DNA of 12,597 nt from Candidatus Bathyarchaeia archaeon (GTDB lineage Archaea > Thermoproteota > Bathyarchaeia > TCS64): assembly GCA_050014495.1 (NCBI GenBank), contig JBEKDF010000054.1:1-12597 (forward strand), given 5' to 3'. Positions 595 through 12,543 of the stretch are shown piece by piece (position 1 is the first letter of the stretch; the number at the start of each line of letters is the position of its first letter). The notes below the pieces were generated by a model. The model worked only from the letters and a program-made list of their open reading frames with translations. It was not told the DNA's origin and did no database searches. A program made the translations under genes and the position numbers.

Positions 595-698
595 CGTCTG
601 GTGACATCATCGCAGTTAGTGAATCGGTGTGGACACAGATTCTGGTTAAGTACATAATCGGACATAACCCTCAAAAGACAAGCCCACGCTCGGAAATG

Positions 699-4447: not shown

Positions 4448-5383
4448 CTACACCAATTCTAATGATCTGAGGGTCGTCTCTGCGAGCCGAATCTTATCCT
4501 CTAAGGAAGTCATAATTGTGTTCGTAACTAAGATATTTATTCCCAATTCCTTGACCGCCTCAATGTACTTCTGGTCCCTATTGTCTATCACAAATGAGTC
4601 AAGGAAGTCTTGGTAAAGCATCGCTATAGTGTAAGCGGATACTTCTAGTCCCAGACCTAACATGATCTTGTCGGCTGGGCCCTTAACTGGTGCCCCTCCC
4701 ACAATCGGGCTGACTGCAGTAATCTTCGCCTCGGTTTCTCTTAGAGCATCACGGACTCCAGGTACACTAAGTATGGTGCCTATGCTAACTATTGGATTAC
4801 TCGGACACACGATGATGTGGTCCGCCTCTCTTATTGAGTCAATTACTCCCGGTGCTGGCTTCGAGCTCTCTGCACCAACGTACTTCACATCATTAACTGG
4901 ATCGGAGGATCCCCTGTGTACAAGGTACTCTTCGAAGTGGATGAGTCCATTAGGTGTGGCTATGTATGTAGCAAAGGGGTCGTCGGTCATCGGGATCAGC
5001 TTCGCTTCAATCCCTAGGGACTTTACGTGCATCGCAGTTATCTCGGATAACCTGTAGCCTTCAGCGAGATGCTTTGTTCTGCTTATGTGGGTTGCTAGGT
5101 CGGCATCGCCTATGTTGAACCATTTTTCGAGTCCGAGTTTGCCTAGGGCCTCGAGGCAGTGGAACGAGTCGTTGTTTATACCCCAGCCTGTTTGCTCGTT
5201 CACGATGCCTGCGAGTGTGTAGGTGACTATATCGACATCGGGTGAGATTTTTAGCCCATGTAGTTCAAAGTCGTCACCCGTATTGATTATAATCGTAATA
5301 TCCTTCGGTGGGACAACCTTGACGAGGCCTTGTAGGAGCCTCGCGGCTCCCACTCCGCCGGCGAGGCAGGTTATTTTAGGCAT
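4448..5383 (-). CDS. cofD: 2-phospho-L-lactate transferase (F420 biosynthesis)
   Basis: LAGGVGAARL, NTGDD, ISPDVD, WG, WFNIGDADLATH, PMTDD, HFEEY, PSNPIVSIG and VSPIVGGAPVKGPADK motifs. Confidence 0.96.
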   Translation of the reverse strand: MPKITCLAGGVGAARLLQGLVKVVPPKDITIIINTGDDFELHGLKISPDVDIVTYTLAGIVNEQTGWGINNDSFHCLEALGKLGLEKWFNIGDADLATHISRTKHLAEGYRLSEITAMHVKSLGIEAKLIPMTDDPFATYIATPNGLIHFEEYLVHRGSSDPVNDVKYVGAESSKPAPGVIDSIREADHIIVCPSNPIVSIGTILSVPGVRDALRETEAKITAVSPIVGGAPVKGPADKIMLGLGLEVSAYTIAMLYQDFLDSFVIDNRDQKYIEAVKELGINILVTNTIMTSLEDKIRLAETTLRSLELV

Positions 5384-5544: not shown

Positions 5545-6594
5545 ATGAGGCTAAAGGGAGTTTGCTACGATGTTGGGCGAGTAATGGGGATCGACTGGCG
5601 CCCAAGCTTTGATCCAAAGGTCGTGAATATGGAACTTGGGATCATCAAGGACGATTTGCATTGTAACGCTGTAAGAATCTGCGGTTTAGACATTAACCGC
5701 CTTATGACGACGGCTGAAGATGCTTTGGAGCAAGGGTTGGAGGTATGGCTCTCACCTGAGAGATGGAATAAAAGCGAACAGGAAACTATAGAATACATCA
5801 CAAAAGCTGCGACAGCTACGGAGACCCTACGCCAACGATTACCGGATAAACCCCTGATATTCAGTGTTGGATCCGAGTCGACACTCTTTATGAAGGGCAT
5901 TTTGGAAGGTGGAAACATATCTGAGCGGATGGGTAACCCGAAAAATAGGTCAAGCGTTAAATCCGGAGAGCACAATAAGCCACTAAATGCGTTTCTGGCA
6001 AGGGCAAGTGAGTCCGTTAGAAAGGTCTTCCAAGGCCAAATAACATACGCATCTCTACCCTGGGAGACGGTTGACTGGAGCCTCTTTGACTTCGTGGGTG
6101 TCGACCACTATCAAATCGAAAAAACAAGGGATAATTACGTGGAGCTCCTAAAACCACTCTTCACATCCAACAAACCCGTCGTCATATCCGAATTCGGGTT
6201 CCGCACTTATCGAGGAGCCGAGGGCACCTCGGAAGGAATGGATGAGGATATAGTAGACAACAGATCCCTATTCCTGCACCAAGTATCGTTCTTAGGCCGA
6301 TTTGTCCAGCCGAGACTGAGGGGTGATTTCGTTCGTGATGAGGGTCTGCAAGCGCGTGAACTCGTTGACCAGCTCATTACCCTTGACAGCGCGGGTGTTG
6401 AGGGTGCATTCGTTATGACGTTTGTCAGCCCCATCTTCCCATTTGACGAAGATCCCCGACATGATCTCGACATGGCAAGCTACAGCTTGGTGAAGACCCT
6501 CTCCAACAAGATGCATGGGGAAACTTACCCCGATATGACGTGGGAGCCAAAGGAGTCGTTTAGAGCCTTAGCTGACTATTATGGTAAGCATTAG
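5545..6594 (+). CDS. Clan GH-A-like TIM-barrel protein (family often labelled 'abortive infection protein' in Actinobacteria)
   Basis: KGVCYDVG, DLHCNAVRI, GLEVWLSP, SVGSE (acid/base position), TYAS..WE.VDWS.FDFVGVDHY, KPVVISEFG (nucleophile position), LDMASYSLVK and WEPKESF. Confidence 0.8.
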   Translation: MRLKGVCYDVGRVMGIDWRPSFDPKVVNMELGIIKDDLHCNAVRICGLDINRLMTTAEDALEQGLEVWLSPERWNKSEQETIEYITKAATATETLRQRLPDKPLIFSVGSESTLFMKGILEGGNISERMGNPKNRSSVKSGEHNKPLNAFLARASESVRKVFQGQITYASLPWETVDWSLFDFVGVDHYQIEKTRDNYVELLKPLFTSNKPVVISEFGFRTYRGAEGTSEGMDEDIVDNRSLFLHQVSFLGRFVQPRLRGDFVRDEGLQARELVDQLITLDSAGVEGAFVMTFVSPIFPFDEDPRHDLDMASYSLVKTLSNKMHGETYPDMTWEPKESFRALADYYGKH

Positions 6595-6643: not shown

Positions 6644-6655
6644 CACGCGCACGTA
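6644..6655 (+). repeat. Intergenic GC-rich 12-mer, copy CACGCGCACGTA
   Basis: Near-identical copies on the minus strand at 7656-7667, 8562-8573 and 10768-10779. Confidence 0.55.
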
Positions 6656-6713
6656 CAATCATAAAATCTATGATCGTCGAAGTTGAGGTTTTATTTTAAG
6701 GGAAGAGAAGGTC

Positions 6714-7505
6714 TTATGCCTCGAGTCTGAATTTTGAGTCATCCATAGTGAAGTGTTCCCCGCCAGCGACAAACACTTCAATGCTTACGAAGCCCTCAAG
6801 CCCACTATCCCTTATCTTCGTAGCCAAAAGGTTGTCCACCTGAAAAATCCCTGCAGGGTTCGACATCTCGATCTTCACCTTGATTGGTTTCTCCACGCCT
6901 CCCTCGATACTAACTCTTTCTATTGATAAAGCAGATACGGAGTGAATGTTGATTCTACCCGCCTCATATGGGATGCGTGCCCTCCCCCTCTCCATATCCA
7001 AAGCATCTGCGACTTTCACAACACCTGCCTCGAGAGTCAGTGGTTTTACTGAAGCCTGATGACTGACCACCGCATGCAGGACCTCACTTGAAATGATCGT
7101 GGCTTCTTCGGGGCCGTAGATCAGTGGCAGGCACCTCTTCATGACATCTCTGGCCATCCCGACGCTGAGGACCTCGTGTCCCTCACGGGTTATGGACATC
7201 CCAAGGTCATGAGTCACGGAGGCAAGTAGGACAACAACCTCTGCGTCGTCGGAACCCATTCCATAGTTCACCTTTATGCTTGGTTCGATCTTCCTGTCAG
7301 TGAGTAGCCTCAGCAACTTGATGGCTCTGTTAGCCACAAGTTTCACGTGGGTGGGCCCATGGTCGCTGTAGCCCATGCGATCAATCGCGAGAACGTTGGC
7401 GCATCTCCAAAGAGTATGTAGTTCTACGTCGGAGTCTATGAATTCCAGCATCGTCCTTAGCTTCTTATTCTCTTTTATTGGGATGTTTAGAGTGTTCTTC
7501 AGCAC
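6714..7505 (-). CDS. HD-domain metal-dependent phosphohydrolase (COG3294-like)
   Basis: SDHGPTH, HDLG, HAVVSH, ADALDMERGRARIP and IHSVSA motifs. GTG start with TAATTAAA at 7535-7542 on the minus strand. Confidence 0.9.
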   Translation of the reverse strand: MLKNTLNIPIKENKKLRTMLEFIDSDVELHTLWRCANVLAIDRMGYSDHGPTHVKLVANRAIKLLRLLTDRKIEPSIKVNYGMGSDDAEVVVLLASVTHDLGMSITREGHEVLSVGMARDVMKRCLPLIYGPEEATIISSEVLHAVVSHQASVKPLTLEAGVVKVADALDMERGRARIPYEAGRINIHSVSALSIERVSIEGGVEKPIKVKIEMSNPAGIFQVDNLLATKIRDSGLEGFVSIEVFVAGGEHFTMDDSKFRLEA

Positions 7506-7655
7506 TCGATGTTCGCCTTAATCGAATTAGGGCGTTTAATTATTTCAACAATTCTGGGTGGATCATCTCGATGAAGCTGTACTAGTATATCGTGCGTGCA
7601 CGCCGAGTTGCCTTAAAGAATTGGTTCTCCTATTGACAAAAAAACGTATTCAGGC

Positions 7656-7667
7656 TACGAGCGCGTG
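7656..7667 (-). repeat. Intergenic GC-rich 12-mer, copy CACGCGCTCGTA
   Basis: 11/12 identical to 6644-6655; 15 nt after the uppP stop. Confidence 0.55.
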
Positions 7668-7682
7668 ATTTATAAAACTCGA

Positions 7683-8482
7683 CTACTTACCTAGTAGAGC
7701 AAATAACACGATGATAACTCCAAGCGACCAGGTGTAGAATGCGAAGTAATAAAATCGCTTAGCCAATGTTATCCTTGAAATAAGATTCAATGCGATATAT
7801 CCAACAACCATGGCTACACCGACCCCCGCCAACATCTCGGTCAAGCCAAGACCTGTGGTTGAAACCACACCTTGCTGTTTAAATGCCTCAACCAGTAGAT
7901 CTCCAAGGATCGCAGGAATTGATAGAAGAAATGAGAACCTTAGAGCCTTCTCCCTGTTTATACCCGTCAGTAATGCTGATGAGATGGTAACGCCCATTCT
8001 AGATAATCCGTGGAATGCAGCTAACCCTTGAAGAAAACCAACGATCAGACCTTTCTTAGTAGTAACTACTTCACTAGCTTCTTTACTGTACTTGGATAAG
8101 TACACAATCGTTCCGTCTAAAATGAAGGCAATGCCGACGGGCAAAATACCGGAGAGAACGTCTTCGAAAAACTCCACATATATCAATCCAATTATACCAG
8201 TTGGTATAGTTGCGATTATCAATAATGGTATGAGCCTGCCATATTCTGAGTGGAAGTCCAAGTGATAAAGAGAGGAAAGATGCTGAGAACCTCCTTTCTA
8301 AGGAATAAGATCACAACAACTAGTGTACCGACGTGCAGGACTACGTCGAATAGAGGTGTTGTGGCCAGACCAAAGAAGTGTTCTAGGACTATGAGATGCC
8401 CGCTACTAGAAATTGGTAGCCACTCTGTGAGGCCTTGAATAGCTCCTAAAATGACTGTTTTAATCAGTTGGCCCCAGATCAA
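7683..8482 (-). pseudogene. uppP: Undecaprenyl-diphosphate phosphatase (BacA/UppP), split by a 1-nt frameshift near 8274-8281
   Basis: The 5' ORF has QGLTEWLPISSSGH and VLHVGTL. The 3' ORF has ATIPTG, QGLAAFHGLSRMG and FSFLLSIPAI. Adding one base at AGC-ATC-[C]TT-TCC gives a continuous 266-aa protein (..SILSSLYHLDFHSEYGRL..). Could be a sequencing error. Confidence 0.85.
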
Positions 8483-8561
8483 AGTTGGTCAAATCTTGAG
8501 TTCTAGTGTTGAGTATACTCTAAAAAGTTAGATCATAATCATGCAATCTGTGTGGTGTTTT

Positions 8562-8573
8562 CTCGTGTGCGTG
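8562..8573 (-). repeat. Intergenic GC-rich 12-mer, copy CACGCACACGAG
   Basis: 9/12 identical to 6644-6655; 1 nt after the flavodoxin stop. Confidence 0.45.
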
Positions 8574-8574
8574 A

Positions 8575-9117
8575 CTAGAGTTTTCTACCGTAGTCGCGAG
8601 CCTTCTTGAGAAGATTATAGCGCGTTTCAACTGGTTTCTCGCCAGTGTTTGCGGCGGCGATACCCTTTATGTTCTTCATCCCGTAGCTCCTTTCCATTTC
8701 CTTGAGCCAGTCGAGGACACCGTCGTATCTGTGGGGGTCATACCAACCGTATGTAATGCAATTGATGGCCTTCGTCCCCTTGGGCCACTTAGCCTTGTTC
8801 TCCTCACTATAGTAACCACTATACCAGTAAAGGCGCTGGATGAATACATGTGTACGGGAGTCGACAGTGCTGTACCAGATGGGTGCTCCGAGGATGAGAG
8901 CTCCCATGGACTCGATATGAGGCTTGATCTTCTCGAAGTCATCCTCGGGGAACGTCGTCATCCCCTCCTTTTCCCCGAGGTGACCGATCTTCAACTCCGC
9001 GAGCTTGAAAAGGACAGTCTCATGCCCCGCCTCACTTGCGCCAGCGAGTACCTCCTCGACGAGCTTAACCGTGTTTCCATCTCTCTTGGCTCCACCAACT
9101 ATGCCTAGAACCTTCAA
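8575..9117 (-). CDS. Multimeric flavodoxin / NAD(P)H-dependent FMN reductase (Isf-like), no Fe-S Cys motif
   Basis: From TTG 9117: MKVLGIVGGAKRDGNT (FMN phosphate loop), DDF, LILGAPIWY, FIQRL and C-terminal LLKKARDYGRKL. TTTTTATA at 9149-9156 on the minus strand. Confidence 0.85.
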   Translation of the reverse strand: MKVLGIVGGAKRDGNTVKLVEEVLAGASEAGHETVLFKLAELKIGHLGEKEGMTTFPEDDFEKIKPHIESMGALILGAPIWYSTVDSRTHVFIQRLYWYSGYYSEENKAKWPKGTKAINCITYGWYDPHRYDGVLDWLKEMERSYGMKNIKGIAAANTGEKPVETRYNLLKKARDYGRKL

Positions 9118-9266
9118 TGATATCACTACCAACCTTTAGAGTGGGTCCTATAAAAAGAACCACAAACTCTTGCAAACATGATAAAACAGGTTAAATGATC
9201 GCTGTTTTCTTAATTAAAACTTGAGTGTTAAAGACGATTAATGCATTCGTGTTTGGTTTGGGGTGC

Positions 9267-10616
9267 CTATTGATCTACTTCCTTGTCCGCTATCTTCAGA
9301 CCCTCATCCATCGCATCGACGCCAACGTCAACTTGCTCCTTCGTAACTATCAACGGCGGAGCTATCACGAAGTGGCTTATCCAGGTGTTGCAGATGACTC
9401 CGTTCTTACCCATCTCCGCGGCGACTTTATCCACCATTAGTGGAACTCCGGTGATTTTGTCGATCCGAGTGTTGAAGGGTTTCTTCGTCTTCCTGTTCTT
9501 CACGATCTCGACGGCCCAGAATAGGCCTATGCCCCTAACGTCTCCGATTGATGGGTGTCGATCCTTGAGCTCGTCTAGCCTCTTAGCCATGTGGGCGCCG
9601 AGGTTCTTCGTGTTCTCGAATAAGTTGAGGCGCTTATATTCGTTTATCGCGGGGACAACAGGGGCCATGGAGAGTGGGTGTGCCTCATATGTGTGGCCGT
9701 GGGCGAAGTAGTTCTCCTCGAAGTAGTCCGCGATCTTTTTGGACGTAGCGGTTATGCCGAGAGGCGTGTATGCACCTGTGCAGCCCTTTGCCGTGGTGAG
9801 TATGTCAGGCTTCACACCCCAGTTGTCGACGGCGAACCAGGTGCCTGTTCTTCCCCAGCCCGCCATTACCTCATCGGCTATGAAGAGTACGTTATGCTCC
9901 TTGGATATCTGCTTGAGTCGGGGAAGGTACTCCTTGACTGGGACAAGCACTCCGTTTGTTCCGACGACGGGCTCCACTATGATTGCGGCTACGTTTCCCT
10001 CGTTTCTTAGCATATAGTCGACGTATTCGGCGCAAGTCACGCCGCAGGTTGGGTACTCTTGGTGGAATGGGCACCTGTAGCAGTAGCAATCGGGGGCGAA
10101 TACGGTGCCATCAACCTTGCTGCTTGGCTCGGCGAACCATCTTCGTGGGTCTCCTGTGCATGCGATTGCAGCTGCGGTTGAGCCATGGTAGGAGGTATAG
10201 CGTGAGATGACCTTGTAGGCTCCTCTTGGCTTCTGGTACATTCTAGCGATCTTTAGCGCGGCCTCGTTGGCTTCTGTCCCCGAGGTCGAGTAGAATATCT
10301 TCTCGAGCCCCTCAGGAAAGACCTTGATCAGGGCCTCACTCGTCCTCGCACGGATGTCTGTGGAGTAAGCGGGGTTTATGTAGGGCATCAACTGAGCCTG
10401 CTCAACTATCGCTTTGATGAGTGCTTGGTTCTTATGGCCTAGGTTGGAGCACATTAGCTGGGAGGAGAAGTCTAGGTACCTCTTCCCGTTGATGTCGGTG
10501 AGGTATACGCCTTCTGCGTCCACTATGTGTTGGGGCTTCCATCCCTTCTGGAAACGCCAGGTTCCATACGTGTGTTTGACAACCTGATCCACGACGTCGT
10601 CTGGTTGCTTCGACAA
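9267..10616 (-). CDS. PLP-dependent class III (omega-type) aminotransferase; substrate not assignable
   Basis: YLDFSSQL..NLGH, SGTEANEAALK, SYHGST, EPVVG, FIADEVMAGWGRTG, PDILTTAKG (PLP lysine), HGHTY, VRGIGLF and APPL. TTATATTA at 10645-10652 on the minus strand. Confidence 0.95.
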   Translation of the reverse strand: MSKQPDDVVDQVVKHTYGTWRFQKGWKPQHIVDAEGVYLTDINGKRYLDFSSQLMCSNLGHKNQALIKAIVEQAQLMPYINPAYSTDIRARTSEALIKVFPEGLEKIFYSTSGTEANEAALKIARMYQKPRGAYKVISRYTSYHGSTAAAIACTGDPRRWFAEPSSKVDGTVFAPDCYCYRCPFHQEYPTCGVTCAEYVDYMLRNEGNVAAIIVEPVVGTNGVLVPVKEYLPRLKQISKEHNVLFIADEVMAGWGRTGTWFAVDNWGVKPDILTTAKGCTGAYTPLGITATSKKIADYFEENYFAHGHTYEAHPLSMAPVVPAINEYKRLNLFENTKNLGAHMAKRLDELKDRHPSIGDVRGIGLFWAVEIVKNRKTKKPFNTRIDKITGVPLMVDKVAAEMGKNGVICNTWISHFVIAPPLIVTKEQVDVGVDAMDEGLKIADKEVDQ

Positions 10617-10758
10617 GTTGTATCAATGTGGCATTGTTCTTAAGTAATATAAGATAGGGGTCTACGCGCTGCTAATTATGGGCTCTCCGCAGCCACGCCC
10701 AACAAGGTGGGTCACTGTTCTAGGAAAATGATGGCTCATCCGAGGGAAAGATGTCAAT

Positions 10759-10869
10759 TTAGAAGACTATGCGCGCGTGGCCCAGGAGAAACAGTGACAC
10801 TATCACTGCTAGGAGGATGTTTGACCTCCTGTTTCTCCTCTGCTCGTCTACGAATGTGCGTTGGGACAT
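10759..10869 (-). pseudogene. htpX: Truncated 5' remnant of the HtpX/M48 membrane protease gene normally coupled to lemA
   Basis: ATG overlaps the lemA stop (TAATG). Encodes MSQRTFVDEQRRNRRSNILLAVIVSLFLLG, resembling the F.eqi.rN.r.s.lL + TM1 start of LemA-associated HtpX, then HARIVF*. Confidence 0.65.
10768..10779 (-). repeat. GC-rich 12-mer, copy CACGCGCGCATA, at the htpX breakpoint
   Basis: 10/12 identical to 6644-6655; begins directly after codon 30 of the htpX stub. Confidence 0.55.
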
Positions 10870-11426
10870 TAGAACTGTACCTTAGGCACCTGCCTCTCGC
10901 CCTCAGGGATTGTGAGGAACTCGTGCTTACTGCGGCCACCCGCGAACCAAGCACCAGGAATCGTCGTGATGAGGTTGTTAAAATTCAGCACACTCGTGTT
11001 GTAGAACTGACGTGAGCTCGCAATACTATCCTCGATCCCCGACAGCTGCCCCTGAAGCATCTTGAAGTTCTCATTAGCCTTAAGATCAGGGTAAGCCTCC
11101 GCGACAGCGAACAACTGGCGCAGACCCGAGGACAACATGTTGCTCGCGTCCATCCTCTGCTGAGGCGAGCCCTGGATCATACCAGCTCTCGCCGCGGCGA
11201 CCTGCTCAAAGATCTCCTTCTCATGCGATGCATAACCCTTGACGGTCTCTACGAGGTTTGGAACCAGATCGTAGCGCTTCTTCAGCTGGACATCAATCTG
11301 GCTCCAGGCTTCACTGATCTGGTTCTCATAGCGTCTAATCCTATTGTAGTAGCTAAAATACAGCCATACCAGGATCAGGACTATGATCACGATTACTCCG
11401 ATCCCTGCTAGTGTTAATACATTCAT
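10869..11426 (-). CDS. lemA: LemA family protein
   Basis: N-terminal TM segment, then YN, AWSQIDVQLKKRYDLVPNLVETVKGYASHE, AVAEAYPDLKANENF and EDSIASSRQFYN..V..FN. Confidence 0.97.
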   Translation of the reverse strand: MNVLTLAGIGVIVIIVLILVWLYFSYYNRIRRYENQISEAWSQIDVQLKKRYDLVPNLVETVKGYASHEKEIFEQVAAARAGMIQGSPQQRMDASNMLSSGLRQLFAVAEAYPDLKANENFKMLQGQLSGIEDSIASSRQFYNTSVLNFNNLITTIPGAWFAGGRSKHEFLTIPEGERQVPKVQF

Positions 11427-11728
11427 TTTCTTTTCTCCATAGATTGATCCGCGTGGTTTAGGATGCCATAATTCTGATTCTTGATTAATTCCTTACCTAA
11501 GCCATGCAGTCAACTGTGATTTCCAGCTAAAACACTGGACTGTTTGCTTATAAACCATCACTTTTTTTCTAAATTACATTCATCGGCAACGTCTCGATTC
11601 ACTTGAAACGCACGGGAGACTGGTTTCTATATTGAATGTTACCAAAGGCTTGATCAGCATGTGAACTAAACAACTTATTTTTTTAAATTTTTTTTATACT
11701 CGTGGCATAATACTTAGTTAGAAATAAT

Positions 11729-11995
11729 ATGTTCGAAGTGAAGAAAAAAAAGACAATCGAGGAGAATGTTGAAAAAACTGGAGAAGCTATAGGAAAGAAA
11801 GTGAAGAAGGAAACTGAGATGACTGAGGAAGCACTTAAAAATGGCGCAAAGAGTGGAGCTGAGAAAACCGAGAAGGCGTTAAAGACCGGAGCTTCGAAGG
11901 CTTCCAAAGCAGCTAAAGCCTTCGAGAAGGGAGTGAAGGAAGGATTAGAGGAGGAAAAAAAGCGCATTCGGGGCGAAAAAGAGAGACTTCCCTAA
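11729..11995 (+). CDS. Small K/E/A/G-rich hydrophilin with about 11-residue helical repeats (LEA-like); may start at GTG 11738
   Basis: Repeats EENVEKTGEAI/GKKVKKETEMT/EEALKNGAKSG/AEKTEKALKTG/ASKASKAAKAF/EKGVKEGLEEE. TTTATA at 11693-11698, 30 nt upstream. Confidence 0.75.
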   Translation: MFEVKKKKTIEENVEKTGEAIGKKVKKETEMTEEALKNGAKSGAEKTEKALKTGASKASKAAKAFEKGVKEGLEEEKKRIRGEKERLP

Positions 11996-12117
11996 TCTGC
12001 ATGCGCGGGCGTAGTATTGAATGGTAACAAACACGCATACGCCATTCATGAAGAAAGTTAACAAAGAAATGGCGGGGAAAATATATCAAGCAACCCAACC
12101 CATGCTATACAATCAAG

Positions 12118-12543
12118 ATGAAATTCAATCCCCTGAAACCTGAGCTATATGTCACAAGCTTCCAAATAAGCCTTAATTTTTATAAAAATATCTTAGGATT
12201 CGACGTCGAGTATCAACGAGAAAATCCTTCATTTGCCTTCTTATCTTATCAAGGCAGCAACCTCATGATTCAAGAACTAGATCCAAAAGAAGATAAAGCA
12301 TTTATCACGGGGAGCCTTGAATATCCCCTCGGCCGGGGAATCAATTTTCAAATAGATATAGACAACATTTCAAAAATCTCTAATTCATTAAAGAGAAGTA
12401 AGTACCCCTTGAGAAGAAATGTCCAAGATAGCTGGTATAAAGTTGGCAACATTCTCCATGGATGTCGACAAATCCTCGTCCAAGATCCAGATGGTTACCT
12501 CCTGAGATTTTCTCAAGGTATCGGAGAAAAACCCGTAGAATAA
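12118..12543 (+). CDS. VOC family protein (glyoxalase/bleomycin-resistance-like)
   Basis: LKPELYV..SLNFY..LGF, FAFL, LMIQE, YPLGRGINFQI, WY and RQILVQDPDGYLLRFSQ. T5 after the stop. Confidence 0.92.
   Translation: MKFNPLKPELYVTSFQISLNFYKNILGFDVEYQRENPSFAFLSYQGSNLMIQELDPKEDKAFITGSLEYPLGRGINFQIDIDNISKISNSLKRSKYPLRRNVQDSWYKVGNILHGCRQILVQDPDGYLLRFSQGIGEKPVE

Follow-up and report, generated by a model that had tools for sequence, protein, structure and literature searches.

Results

CG-rich words and gene junctions in the window

The window, that is, the whole stretch of 12,597 nucleotides that was analysed, comes from a Candidatus Bathyarchaeia archaeon from peat. It contains uppP, an HD-domain gene, a flavodoxin gene, an aminotransferase gene and lemA followed by a 5' stub of htpX (Table 1). 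The original prediction described a recurrent GC-rich 12-mer at gene junctions and at the break in htpX. All 13 listed words were present at their coordinates and strands, and the distances of 15, 1 and 6 nt from stop codons matched the ORF calls. The consensus CACGCGCWCGTA did not hold as a unit, because exact copies occurred only at the two sites used to build it, which are both inside the window and the only ones in the genome. With up to 2 mismatches there were 4 matches compared with 0.82 by chance (5 of 200 shuffles reached 4), and with up to 3 mismatches there were 10 compared with 9.4 expected, which is near chance. The consensus was rejected as a genome-wide word on these counts. Eleven of 12 letters were common to two eroded tracts in 4.6% of 4,000 random pairs, so that such a pair is expected among five sites about 38% of the time. 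A mobile HD-gene module with the two exact copies as its inverted ends was also rejected, since their likeness is at chance level and the homology limits stop short of both copies.

The sites were then rated as eroded (CG)5, by matches out of 10. In the 2,086 bases of intergenic DNA of the window, five sites (6644, 7594, 7658, 10770 and 12002) scored at least 8/10, compared with 0.2 in 500 shuffles (maximum 2), and eight scored at least 7/10, compared with 1.7. These five are short runs of alternating C and G in eroded form. The genome-wide excess over shuffle corresponds to about 89% of the 8/10 sites and about 63% of the 7/10 sites. Among the copies first described as weaker, the one at 7589-7600 overlaps an 8/10 site, and those at 683 and 11607 scored 7/10, as did 8562; those at 1385, 3670 and 12032 scored 5-6/10, which is chance level by sequence alone. 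The weak copy at 10663 is likewise at chance level by score but has separate support as a breakpoint: homology to both G002 copies ends at 10664, and the parents run on without CG. The copy within a CDS at 6347 scored 7/10.

Table 1. Sites of the window, scored against (CG)5
Position	Strand	Feature	Score	Homology
683..694		Probable eroded tract at homology boundary	7/10	Homology to G012 starts at 689
6644..6655		Eroded (CG)n tract, convergent spacer	8/10	No homologue reaches the site; presumed junction
7589..7603		Eroded (CG)n tract upstream of HD-domain gene	8/10 at 7594-7603	
7656..7667		Eroded (CG)n tract 15 nt past uppP stop	8/10	Ends at stop codon, 15 nt short
8562..8573		Probable eroded tract 1 nt past flavodoxin stop	7/10 (~63% real)	Ends at stop
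10663..10674		Short CGCGC run, aminotransferase promoter region	5/10	Region no longer matches relatives
10759..10866	-	htpX 5' stub behind lemA, ending in filler		Matches N-terminus of 316-aa Peptidase_M48 of L161
10768..10779		CG filler, pure run GCGCGCG at 10771-10777; htpX cut after ~30 codons	8/10	
11607..11618		Possible eroded tract	7/10	No homologue reaches the site
12002..12013		Eroded (CG)n tract 6 nt past a stop	8/10	Ends at stop

The mid-gene break in htpX was confirmed: alignments to the intact lemA-htpX of 12 relatives end at 10776-10786. The intact gene encodes a 316-aa Peptidase_M48. None of the 12 carried a CG tract at the break position. Contigs from runs X4, X7 and X9 cross the break without differences. 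Split contigs at the motif were found at no window site in four runs, whose low-depth contigs are uninformative on activity. Near the HD-gene tract, homology ends at 7558, where the relative L166 has its own 8-bp tract. At three of the five strong sites, we infer the status as a junction.

Alternating CG runs in the genome

Intergenic (CG)n runs of at least 8 bp numbered 401, compared with 8 in the shuffle; the genome-wide feature is these runs and not the 12-mer. Other dinucleotide runs were at most 2.5-fold over shuffle. Prokaryotes generally suppress alternating GC patterns (PMC4060949), and a 50-fold excess is therefore surprising in itself. The number of runs was 177 at 8 bp, 125 at 9 bp, 92 at 10 bp and 4 at 11 bp, indicating a sharp ceiling at 10 bp. 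Spans with one mismatch likewise fell off after 10, and the runs of 15 of the 17 other genomes in the genus did the same. In the single-contig genome G074, 46 ten-mers and 7 eleven-mers were counted in the 800 kb that were read of 1,976 kb. A slippage microsatellite was rejected, because the distribution was nearly flat from 6 to 10 bp and then dropped more than 20-fold, with no geometric tail, and because runs appear at joints without a seed from which to grow.

Runs of 8-10 bp were found 53 times in 2.53 Mb of called CDS and 394 times in 0.58 Mb of intergenic DNA, and CG six-mers in CDS were at or under expectation. A HIP1-like repeat, offered in the original prediction as one reading, is contradicted by this near confinement to non-coding DNA. 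The prediction ranked a transcription-factor site lower, and this was borne out: tracts were rarer than expected in the 40 bp upstream of starts (47 versus 82), kept no fixed distance to starts or stops, and were densest between convergent genes (about 3.1-3.3 per kb in spacers of 30-300 bp, versus 0.7-1.4 otherwise). Within 30 bp of stops there was a mild enrichment (126 versus 82 expected). Around 111 ten-mers, the flanking arms held no information beyond 2 nt. Erosion consisted mostly of C>T and G>A changes. The bases bordering the runs were AT in G000 and TA in G074 (146 of 287), and were partly new relative to the parent. The trait differed between sister genomes, with about 500 eight-mers in G000 versus 1 in G001 and G010.

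CG runs are new relative to the parents of the joints

After 42 IS-end flanks had been dropped from 150, 99 of the remaining 108 non-transposon flanks with a homologue shared no more than 3 nt with the run. The parents overall were mostly paralogues or orthologues of 75-95% identity and not true ancestors. At 13 joints both parents were known and neither carried the tract; four of 12 two-sided cases (C1:234404, C3:76677, L113 and L002) were dropped as collinear or point-variant. Together with the htpX homology limits, the tract-free parents agree with the prediction that the words lie at junctions and at a break within a gene, and they favour its scar reading. They do not agree with a pre-existing module-shuffling site, since the absence of the tract at the joint in intact parents indicates a product of the join and not its substrate. 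The same held when att, dif and attC sites were considered: the site was absent from the substrate before joining, and there were no conserved recombinase-binding arms.

At C33:31598, 10 bp replace about 445 bp within a transposase gene, and at C4:60356 a 10-bp run lies at a deletion of about 960 bp. In an unselected census of collinear gaps, 5 of 133 carried a run of at least 8 compared with 0.0 expected; 124 had no run of at least 5, many of these being repeat-protein artefacts. The filler was alternating CG whatever the flanks. Runs often took up the phase of 1-2 G/C bases at the broken end, and an in-phase match of 1-4 nt was present at 69 of 110 ends, where we estimate chance at about a quarter. 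G074 had 508 nine-mer matches, and 8 of its 10 flanks with a homologue were filled joints, several relative to parents of 95-99% identity (the L311/L343 pair was left out). Neither the transposase profile nor PF01609, Ku, RT or gyrase had a match in G074.

An IS5/IS1182-like clade flanked by GCGCG

One clade of insertion sequences nearly always had GCGCG on its flanks, and this held in tract-poor genomes too. It comprises elements of 1.1-1.6 kb and MITEs with 18-bp terminal inverted repeats, and its transposase of about 330 aa has DUF772 and DDE_Tnp_1, so that the DDE transposase with DUF772 and the terminal inverted repeats of the IS5/IS1182 families are both present. The transposase scored under every NCBIfam cut-off (94.9 of 270 for IS1182 and 93.6 of 140 for IS5_4), and its nearest plasmid relatives were 24-28% identical. 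The target duplication may be 2, 4 or 6. An empty IS allele was found neither in four runs compared with C61 nor among 42 paired elements. At one orthologous site, a 9-mer that is free in G016 holds an IS in G000; this alignment supports the free tract as a putative pre-existing IS target.

Candidate writer enzymes

No enzyme or template for the CG runs was found in the genome comparisons. G000 encodes Ku and LigD. Ku did not track the trait: outside the genus, only 1 of 17 tract-rich genomes had it, and it was also found in tract-free G001 and G010. Two extra AEP primases (C20 and C53) did not track the trait in single-protein queries of five genomes; G074, G151 and G283 had no match to the extra AEPs of G000. 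RT, PolY, the number of PolB genes and gyrase did not track the trait either, and nucleotidyltransferases of about 350 aa are also present in tract-free G287.

Discussion

Origin of the CG runs

The sites of the window are best explained as eroded CG runs at joints left by the loss, capture or rearrangement of DNA. The runs are mostly absent from the parents and were likely written during rejoining by a putative host enzyme, a reading to which we assign a probability of about 0.6. Under the mechanism we propose, each broken 3' end would gain a small number of CG units, probably dictated either by a short palindromic template of fixed sequence or by the pocket of the enzyme itself. Since (CG)n is self-complementary, two ends tailed in this way could always anneal and then be filled in and ligated, with no homology shared between them. 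Joints within needed genes would be purged, and for this reason the survivors would accumulate in spacers and pseudogenes. The IS5/IS1182-like clade, with a preference for GCGCGC, would then probably land in the scars.

Alternatively, the transposase of this clade may itself write or carry the CG bases, with insertion, adjacent deletion and excision each leaving a run, so that all tracts would be transposon scars. In G000, a pure run of 4-9 nt precedes the terminal C, always in the same phase, at 53 of 58 repeated IS ends. Elements whose proteins are 30-100% identical and whose ends fall into at least six types share this feature. G165 has IS flanks of 7+7, yet no free nine-mers, and at least 12 IS ends have flanking CG that is absent from the intact homologue. 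The border bases of the runs are similar to the inverted-repeat tips (CAT, CTA). The clade is also associated with tract-rich genomes (15 of 26, versus 61 of 275 others; outside the genus 7 of 17, p=0.065), although kin are not independent. However, a transposase match is lacking in 11 of the 26 tract-rich genomes, among them G074 with its young filled joints, and the IS-rich genomes G250, G158, G293 and G064 have few tracts. The left and right IS flanks sum to 8-16, which gives no ceiling at 10 without an extra rule. The sum was longer in tract-rich hosts (12.2 versus 10.8, p=0.016, with 4 of 42 paired elements dropped, two for an IS110 insert and two for a mutated end), which fits an IS that lands in tracts made by the host. 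Moreover, 807 of 907 tracts are without a repeated flank and 100 have one. We consider a transposase origin unlikely; if true, it would mean that a DDE enzyme adds bases, an activity unreported in the literature searched.

Existing tracts might instead be break-prone or self-propagating, with a break at the tract, or an end copying a tract from elsewhere, followed by micro-homology joining. One-sided joints, which are most of the 108 and include htpX, cannot reveal the origin of the run, the 1-2 nt in-phase match at ends would fit, and alternating CG favours Z-DNA (PMC4060949, section 3.6). GyrA was found in 6 of 301 genomes and in none of the 26 tract-rich ones, which makes Z-DNA unlikely in vivo. 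The 13 joints with the tract in neither parent speak against this origin, and it leaves unexplained both the lineage-specific borders and the genomes with practically no tracts (G001 and G010); we regard it as improbable. A functional site under selection (att-type, a HIP1-like palindrome, an uptake signal, or a regulator or chromatin-protein site) would account for a palindrome with a fixed maximum length and strong enrichment, and the genome has 13 tyrosine-recombinase matches. It is already largely refuted, and very improbable, given the lack of arms past 2 nt, of conservation at orthologous positions and of enrichment in CDS, the depletion in promoter zones, the peak between convergent genes, and the occurrence inside broken genes with tract-free parents. 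Since the genome was binned from a metagenome, as 92 contigs and with 7.5% contamination, an assembly or sequencing artefact was also considered. For the htpX joint this is refuted by the unchanged contigs of three runs. An artefact is scarcely credible for the rest: independent contigs of other runs cross window sites unchanged, a diverged strain spans 6644 and 12002, and the trait is lineage-specific, is seen in one-contig assemblies and erodes by transitions.

Implications

Read more widely, a repair process that writes during rejoining may exist in several Bathyarchaeia lineages: Ku-independent, leaving a defined, self-complementary linker that has at most five CG units and end bases particular to the lineage, and making any two ends compatible. 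Genomes would be reshuffled gene by gene, and the joins would form a countable and datable record that an IS clade has adopted as its target, its ends being hit in turn by an IS110 element. We put this wider view forward tentatively, at somewhat less than even odds.

The trait is not described in the openly accessible literature searched; the main text of PMC13343696 does not contain 'Bathy'. Homology-free end joining in archaea is an open question, and the primase proposal in PMC3333859 is based on in vitro work only. A fixed self-complementary filler would tag each join, so that the rates, positions and ages of rearrangements could be read from a genome. With sister genomes that differ so much, a comparison should be able to find the causal gene. 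An enzyme making any two ends cohesive would, if real, be a new activity with a possible use in DNA assembly.

Comparison with known systems

HIP1 of cyanobacteria is a short, over-abundant, lineage-specific palindrome of fixed sequence that fills coding DNA, whereas the CG runs lie in intergenic DNA, range in length from 5 to 10 bp and come in as insertions at joints. Healing of broken ends by a telomerase-type enzyme would account for a capped repeat, for 1-2 nt priming and for the lineage-specific borders. However, RVT_1 (PF00078) had no match in G000 and five other tract-rich genomes, and no template was found. In Ku/LigD NHEJ and in filler synthesis by TdT, Pol mu and Pol theta, unrelated ends are joined with 1-2 nt of micro-homology and new bases are left, as in the archaeal joints. 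The archaeal filler differs in being one self-complementary repeat with a 10-bp ceiling, neither random nor locally templated, and the trait does not follow Ku. The IS clade shares transposase domains and inverted repeats with IS5 and IS1182 and differs from them by its invariant GCGCG flanks and sub-cut-off scores.

The primase PriSL of Sulfolobus adds terminal nucleotides with a preference for G/C and anneals to a second strand, and has been proposed to act in end joining; its activity was demonstrated in vitro on dC/dG stretches, with rNTPs preferred (PMC3333859). The accessible part of that paper describes no alternating CG product, and PriS is also encoded in tract-free genomes. The IS-excision enhancer (IEE) is an AEP polymerase with MMEJ activity that links IS excision to adjacent deletions, to joining by micro-homology and to slippage of 5-7 nt (PMC9943667). 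The expansions described there for IEE are homopolymeric and templated by the end, whereas the CG runs are alternating.

Alternating CG runs between genes

All 13 words listed in the original prediction, which described a degenerate GC-rich 12-mer, were present at their places in the window. As a genome-wide word the 12-mer consensus failed, with two exact copies, both inside the window, and chance-level counts at three mismatches. When scored by agreement with (CG)5, five window sites reached 8/10, against 0.2 expected, and three further intergenic sites reached 7, but four of the weaker copies were at chance level by sequence.

The source genome (3.1 Mb, 92 contigs, 49% GC) was surveyed by k-mers on our own gene calls (3265 genes, 81% coding). 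GCGCGC occurred 2286 times in intergenic DNA versus 91 expected, and was not enriched in coding DNA. Pure alternating CG runs of 6, 7, 8, 9, 10, and 11 bp numbered 262, 148, 177, 125, 92, and 4 between genes, compared with 76, 18, 5, 1.4, 0.2, and 0.2 after shuffling. The excess is unique to CG: runs of at least 8 bp numbered 401 versus 8 in shuffled sequence, and those of AT 55 versus 37. In near-perfect ten-base windows, most departures from (CG)5 (93 of 139) were C>T or G>A changes, which yield words like the predicted 12-mer from (CG)n. The ten-mer register varies by genome, GC-type versus CG-type copies being 99 versus 54 in the source genome and 7 versus 48 in the relative G007. The feature is real and nonrandom, though different from the predicted consensus.

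Tract density was highest between convergent genes, and no flanking arms were found around tracts. The 40 bp before starts had 47 tracts versus 82 expected, in agreement with the original prediction, which ranked a transcription-factor site as the poorer fit. A regulator site was rejected on this placement, and an att site because arms are lacking. A noncoding multicopy word family (AGGTGGAAGTGAGGATAAGGCTAT-like) also occurs in the source genome (e.g., contigs C50, C74, C75, C77, and C84), its 8-mers having 100 to 190 copies in the k-mer survey. Its words lie upstream of many paralogous genes and are often interrupted by CG tracts.

Nature of the window

The window is a complete contig whose nearest named relatives are Bathyarchaeia, and the sequencing runs containing it are mostly peat metagenomes. 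The location and neighbors of its Pfam-annotated genes differ from relative to relative, marking it as reshuffled accessory DNA. The HD-domain and glyoxalase genes, 4.6 kb apart here, are adjacent in the relative G002, where a CG run lies close to the end of glyoxalase homology. The reading frame of uppP is split by a frameshift, which is either genuine or introduced in assembly. Three other runs (X4, X7, and X9) have contigs that share just 35 bases with cofD and then pass into repeat-like sequence, as a host-matching CRISPR spacer would.

New CG at joints

The predicted mid-gene break in htpX was borne out: homology to intact htpX stops at 10776-10786 in 12 relatives, whose intact genes have no CG run at the matching position. 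Upstream of the aminotransferase, the match to both G002 copies stops one base before CGCGC. Among 1340 flanks of runs of at least 8 bp, 150 had a differently continuing homologue. After removal of 42 IS ends, 108 were left, of which 99 had 3 nt or fewer in common with the run; these runs measured 8 bp in 27 cases, 9 bp in 29, 10 bp in 25, and more than 10 bp in 6. Both parents were available for 13 joints, and the tract was absent from both. These alignments show that tracts mark joints and arose there.

Among 133 collinear gaps counted without prior selection, 5 had runs of at least 8 (0.0 expected) and 124, many in repeat proteins, had no run of at least 5, indicating that CG-filled joining is not the sole route of DNA loss. 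The parent's following 1 to 4 bases were in phase with the run at 69 of 110 ends. The 1 to 4 bases beyond the run differed from the parent more than farther bases (e.g., 14/35 versus 2-4/35), indicating that filler can include border bases. These were AT in the source genome and TA in the relative G074.

Positions of joints and other features (C, contigs of the source genome unless G002 is named; L, loci taken from the source genome or relatives)
Feature	Position	Locus
Two-sided joints, tract-free parents, set 1	C4:60356, C13:42042, C24:4356, C33:2378, C33:5405, C33:13896, C33:31598, L256:9122	
Two-sided joints, tract-free parents, set 2	C5:95745, C14:4047, C76:6511	
Two-sided joints, tract-free parents, others	L004:135, L308:6295	
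IS110-family insertions	C48:5777-7090, C17:57460-58773	L332, L333; also L098, L118, L208, L257, L263
Match within cofD	window 4773-4807	
HD-domain gene	window 6714-7505	
uppP (BacA), two overlapping frames	window 7683-8482	
Glyoxalase gene	window 12118-12543	
Adjacent HD-domain and glyoxalase genes	G002:C24	L159
Nested inverted repeats	G002:C30:1-3563	L111
Ku-LigD operon	C3:65223-67500	L267
Extra AEP primase	C20:26 kb	L268
Extra AEP primase	C53:7 kb	L269

Mobile elements at tracts

Of 124 repeat ends in the source genome, 41 coincided with tracts, versus 4.8, mostly due to a clade similar to the IS5/IS1182 families yet scoring under the family cut-offs. Its members are 1.1- to 1.6-kb elements and MITEs; they have inverted repeats of 18 bp and a transposase that combines DUF772 with a DDE domain. 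Alternating CG of 4 to 9 nt in fixed phase preceded 53 of its 58 repeated ends in this genome, and the CG flank holds across 30 to 100% protein identity, tract-poor genomes included.

A 361-aa IS110-family element is placed so that the GCGCG run directly abuts one side and the first bases of this inverted repeat the other, an arrangement that recurs in several different host elements. IS110 elements use a bridge RNA, and the GCGCGCG conserved in the noncoding end of this one may be a candidate guide for the GCGCG/inverted-repeat target. In G002, nested long inverted repeats (108 to 212 nt) surround an IS copy, the same flank being IS filled once and carrying a free 8-mer once.

Distribution and candidate genes

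Tract-rich genomes, set by our choice at 80 or more hand-counted nine-mer matches (raw, without GC correction), numbered 26 of 301 Bathyarchaeia and were spread over six families; sister genomes within the same genus had 0 or 1 match. Of the 17 tract-rich genomes outside the genus, 1 had Ku, which was also present in G001 and G010, both tract free. Ku-LigD and two extra AEP primases of the source genome, one beside an integrase-like gene, were rejected as candidate tract writers, since their distribution does not follow the tracts (for the primases, by single-protein queries of five genomes). No writer enzyme was found among Ku, extra AEPs, RT (six genomes), PolY, nucleotidyltransferases of ~350 aa, PolB number, and gyrase.

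Origin of the tracts

The data show new CG at joints, limited to ~10 bp and primed in phase over a short stretch, with lineage-specific borders and differences rich in transitions, as well as an IS preference. We favor, at a probability of about 0.6, CG filler written by the host at joints. CG units would be added as tails to broken ends, and the self-complementary tails would anneal and then be sealed. Both the ceiling and the borders could be set by an enzyme pocket or by a short, fixed template, and survivors would remain in spacers through selection.

That the IS clade itself writes the tracts as scars is possible but doubtful. In its support, the clade's profile matched 15 of 26 tract-rich versus 61 of 275 other genomes. 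An intact homologue of the flanking gene lacked the CG at 12 or more IS ends, which fits a CG-writing IS or one landing in an older scar alike; no empty IS allele was found. However, searches of G074 (one contig, 1.98 Mb, 39% GC) matched neither the IS profile nor PF01609, Ku, RT, or gyrase, and two repeat-like remnants were all that turned up. Yet it had 508 nine-mer matches, and the 800 kb examined showed a matching ceiling as well as joints that were filled relative to 95 to 99% identical parents. Conversely, the IS-rich genomes G250, G158, and G293 had 5 to 18 matches. Landing in earlier tracts is favored by one orthologous site (free 9-mer in G016, IS filled in the source genome), by longer IS flanks in tract-rich hosts (12.2, n=25, versus 10.8, n=13; P=0.016, with kin not independent), and by a repeated flank at just 100 of 907 tracts.

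Self-propagating or fragile tracts seem improbable. A selected functional site is very unlikely, as tracts are depleted before starts, lack arms, and peak between convergent genes. Least credible is an artefact, because contigs of three other runs cross the htpX joint unchanged.

Comparison with known systems

In the literature, alternating GC and RY patterns are described as generally suppressed, with Thermofilum pendens as an RY-rich exception (PMC4060949), PriSL as capable of terminal transfer and template bridging (PMC3333859), and ISs as possibly inserting into already existing breaks (PMC11708052). IEE is treated in PMC9943667, and "Bathy" is absent from the main text of PMC13343696. A literature search found no account of the CG-run trait. 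The tract is a scar left by the join and is not a site for it. TdT and telomerase are further systems for comparison. CG tracts do not belong with Ku/LigD nonhomologous end joining, att sites, microsatellites, or HIP1; they work like filler-assisted end joining.
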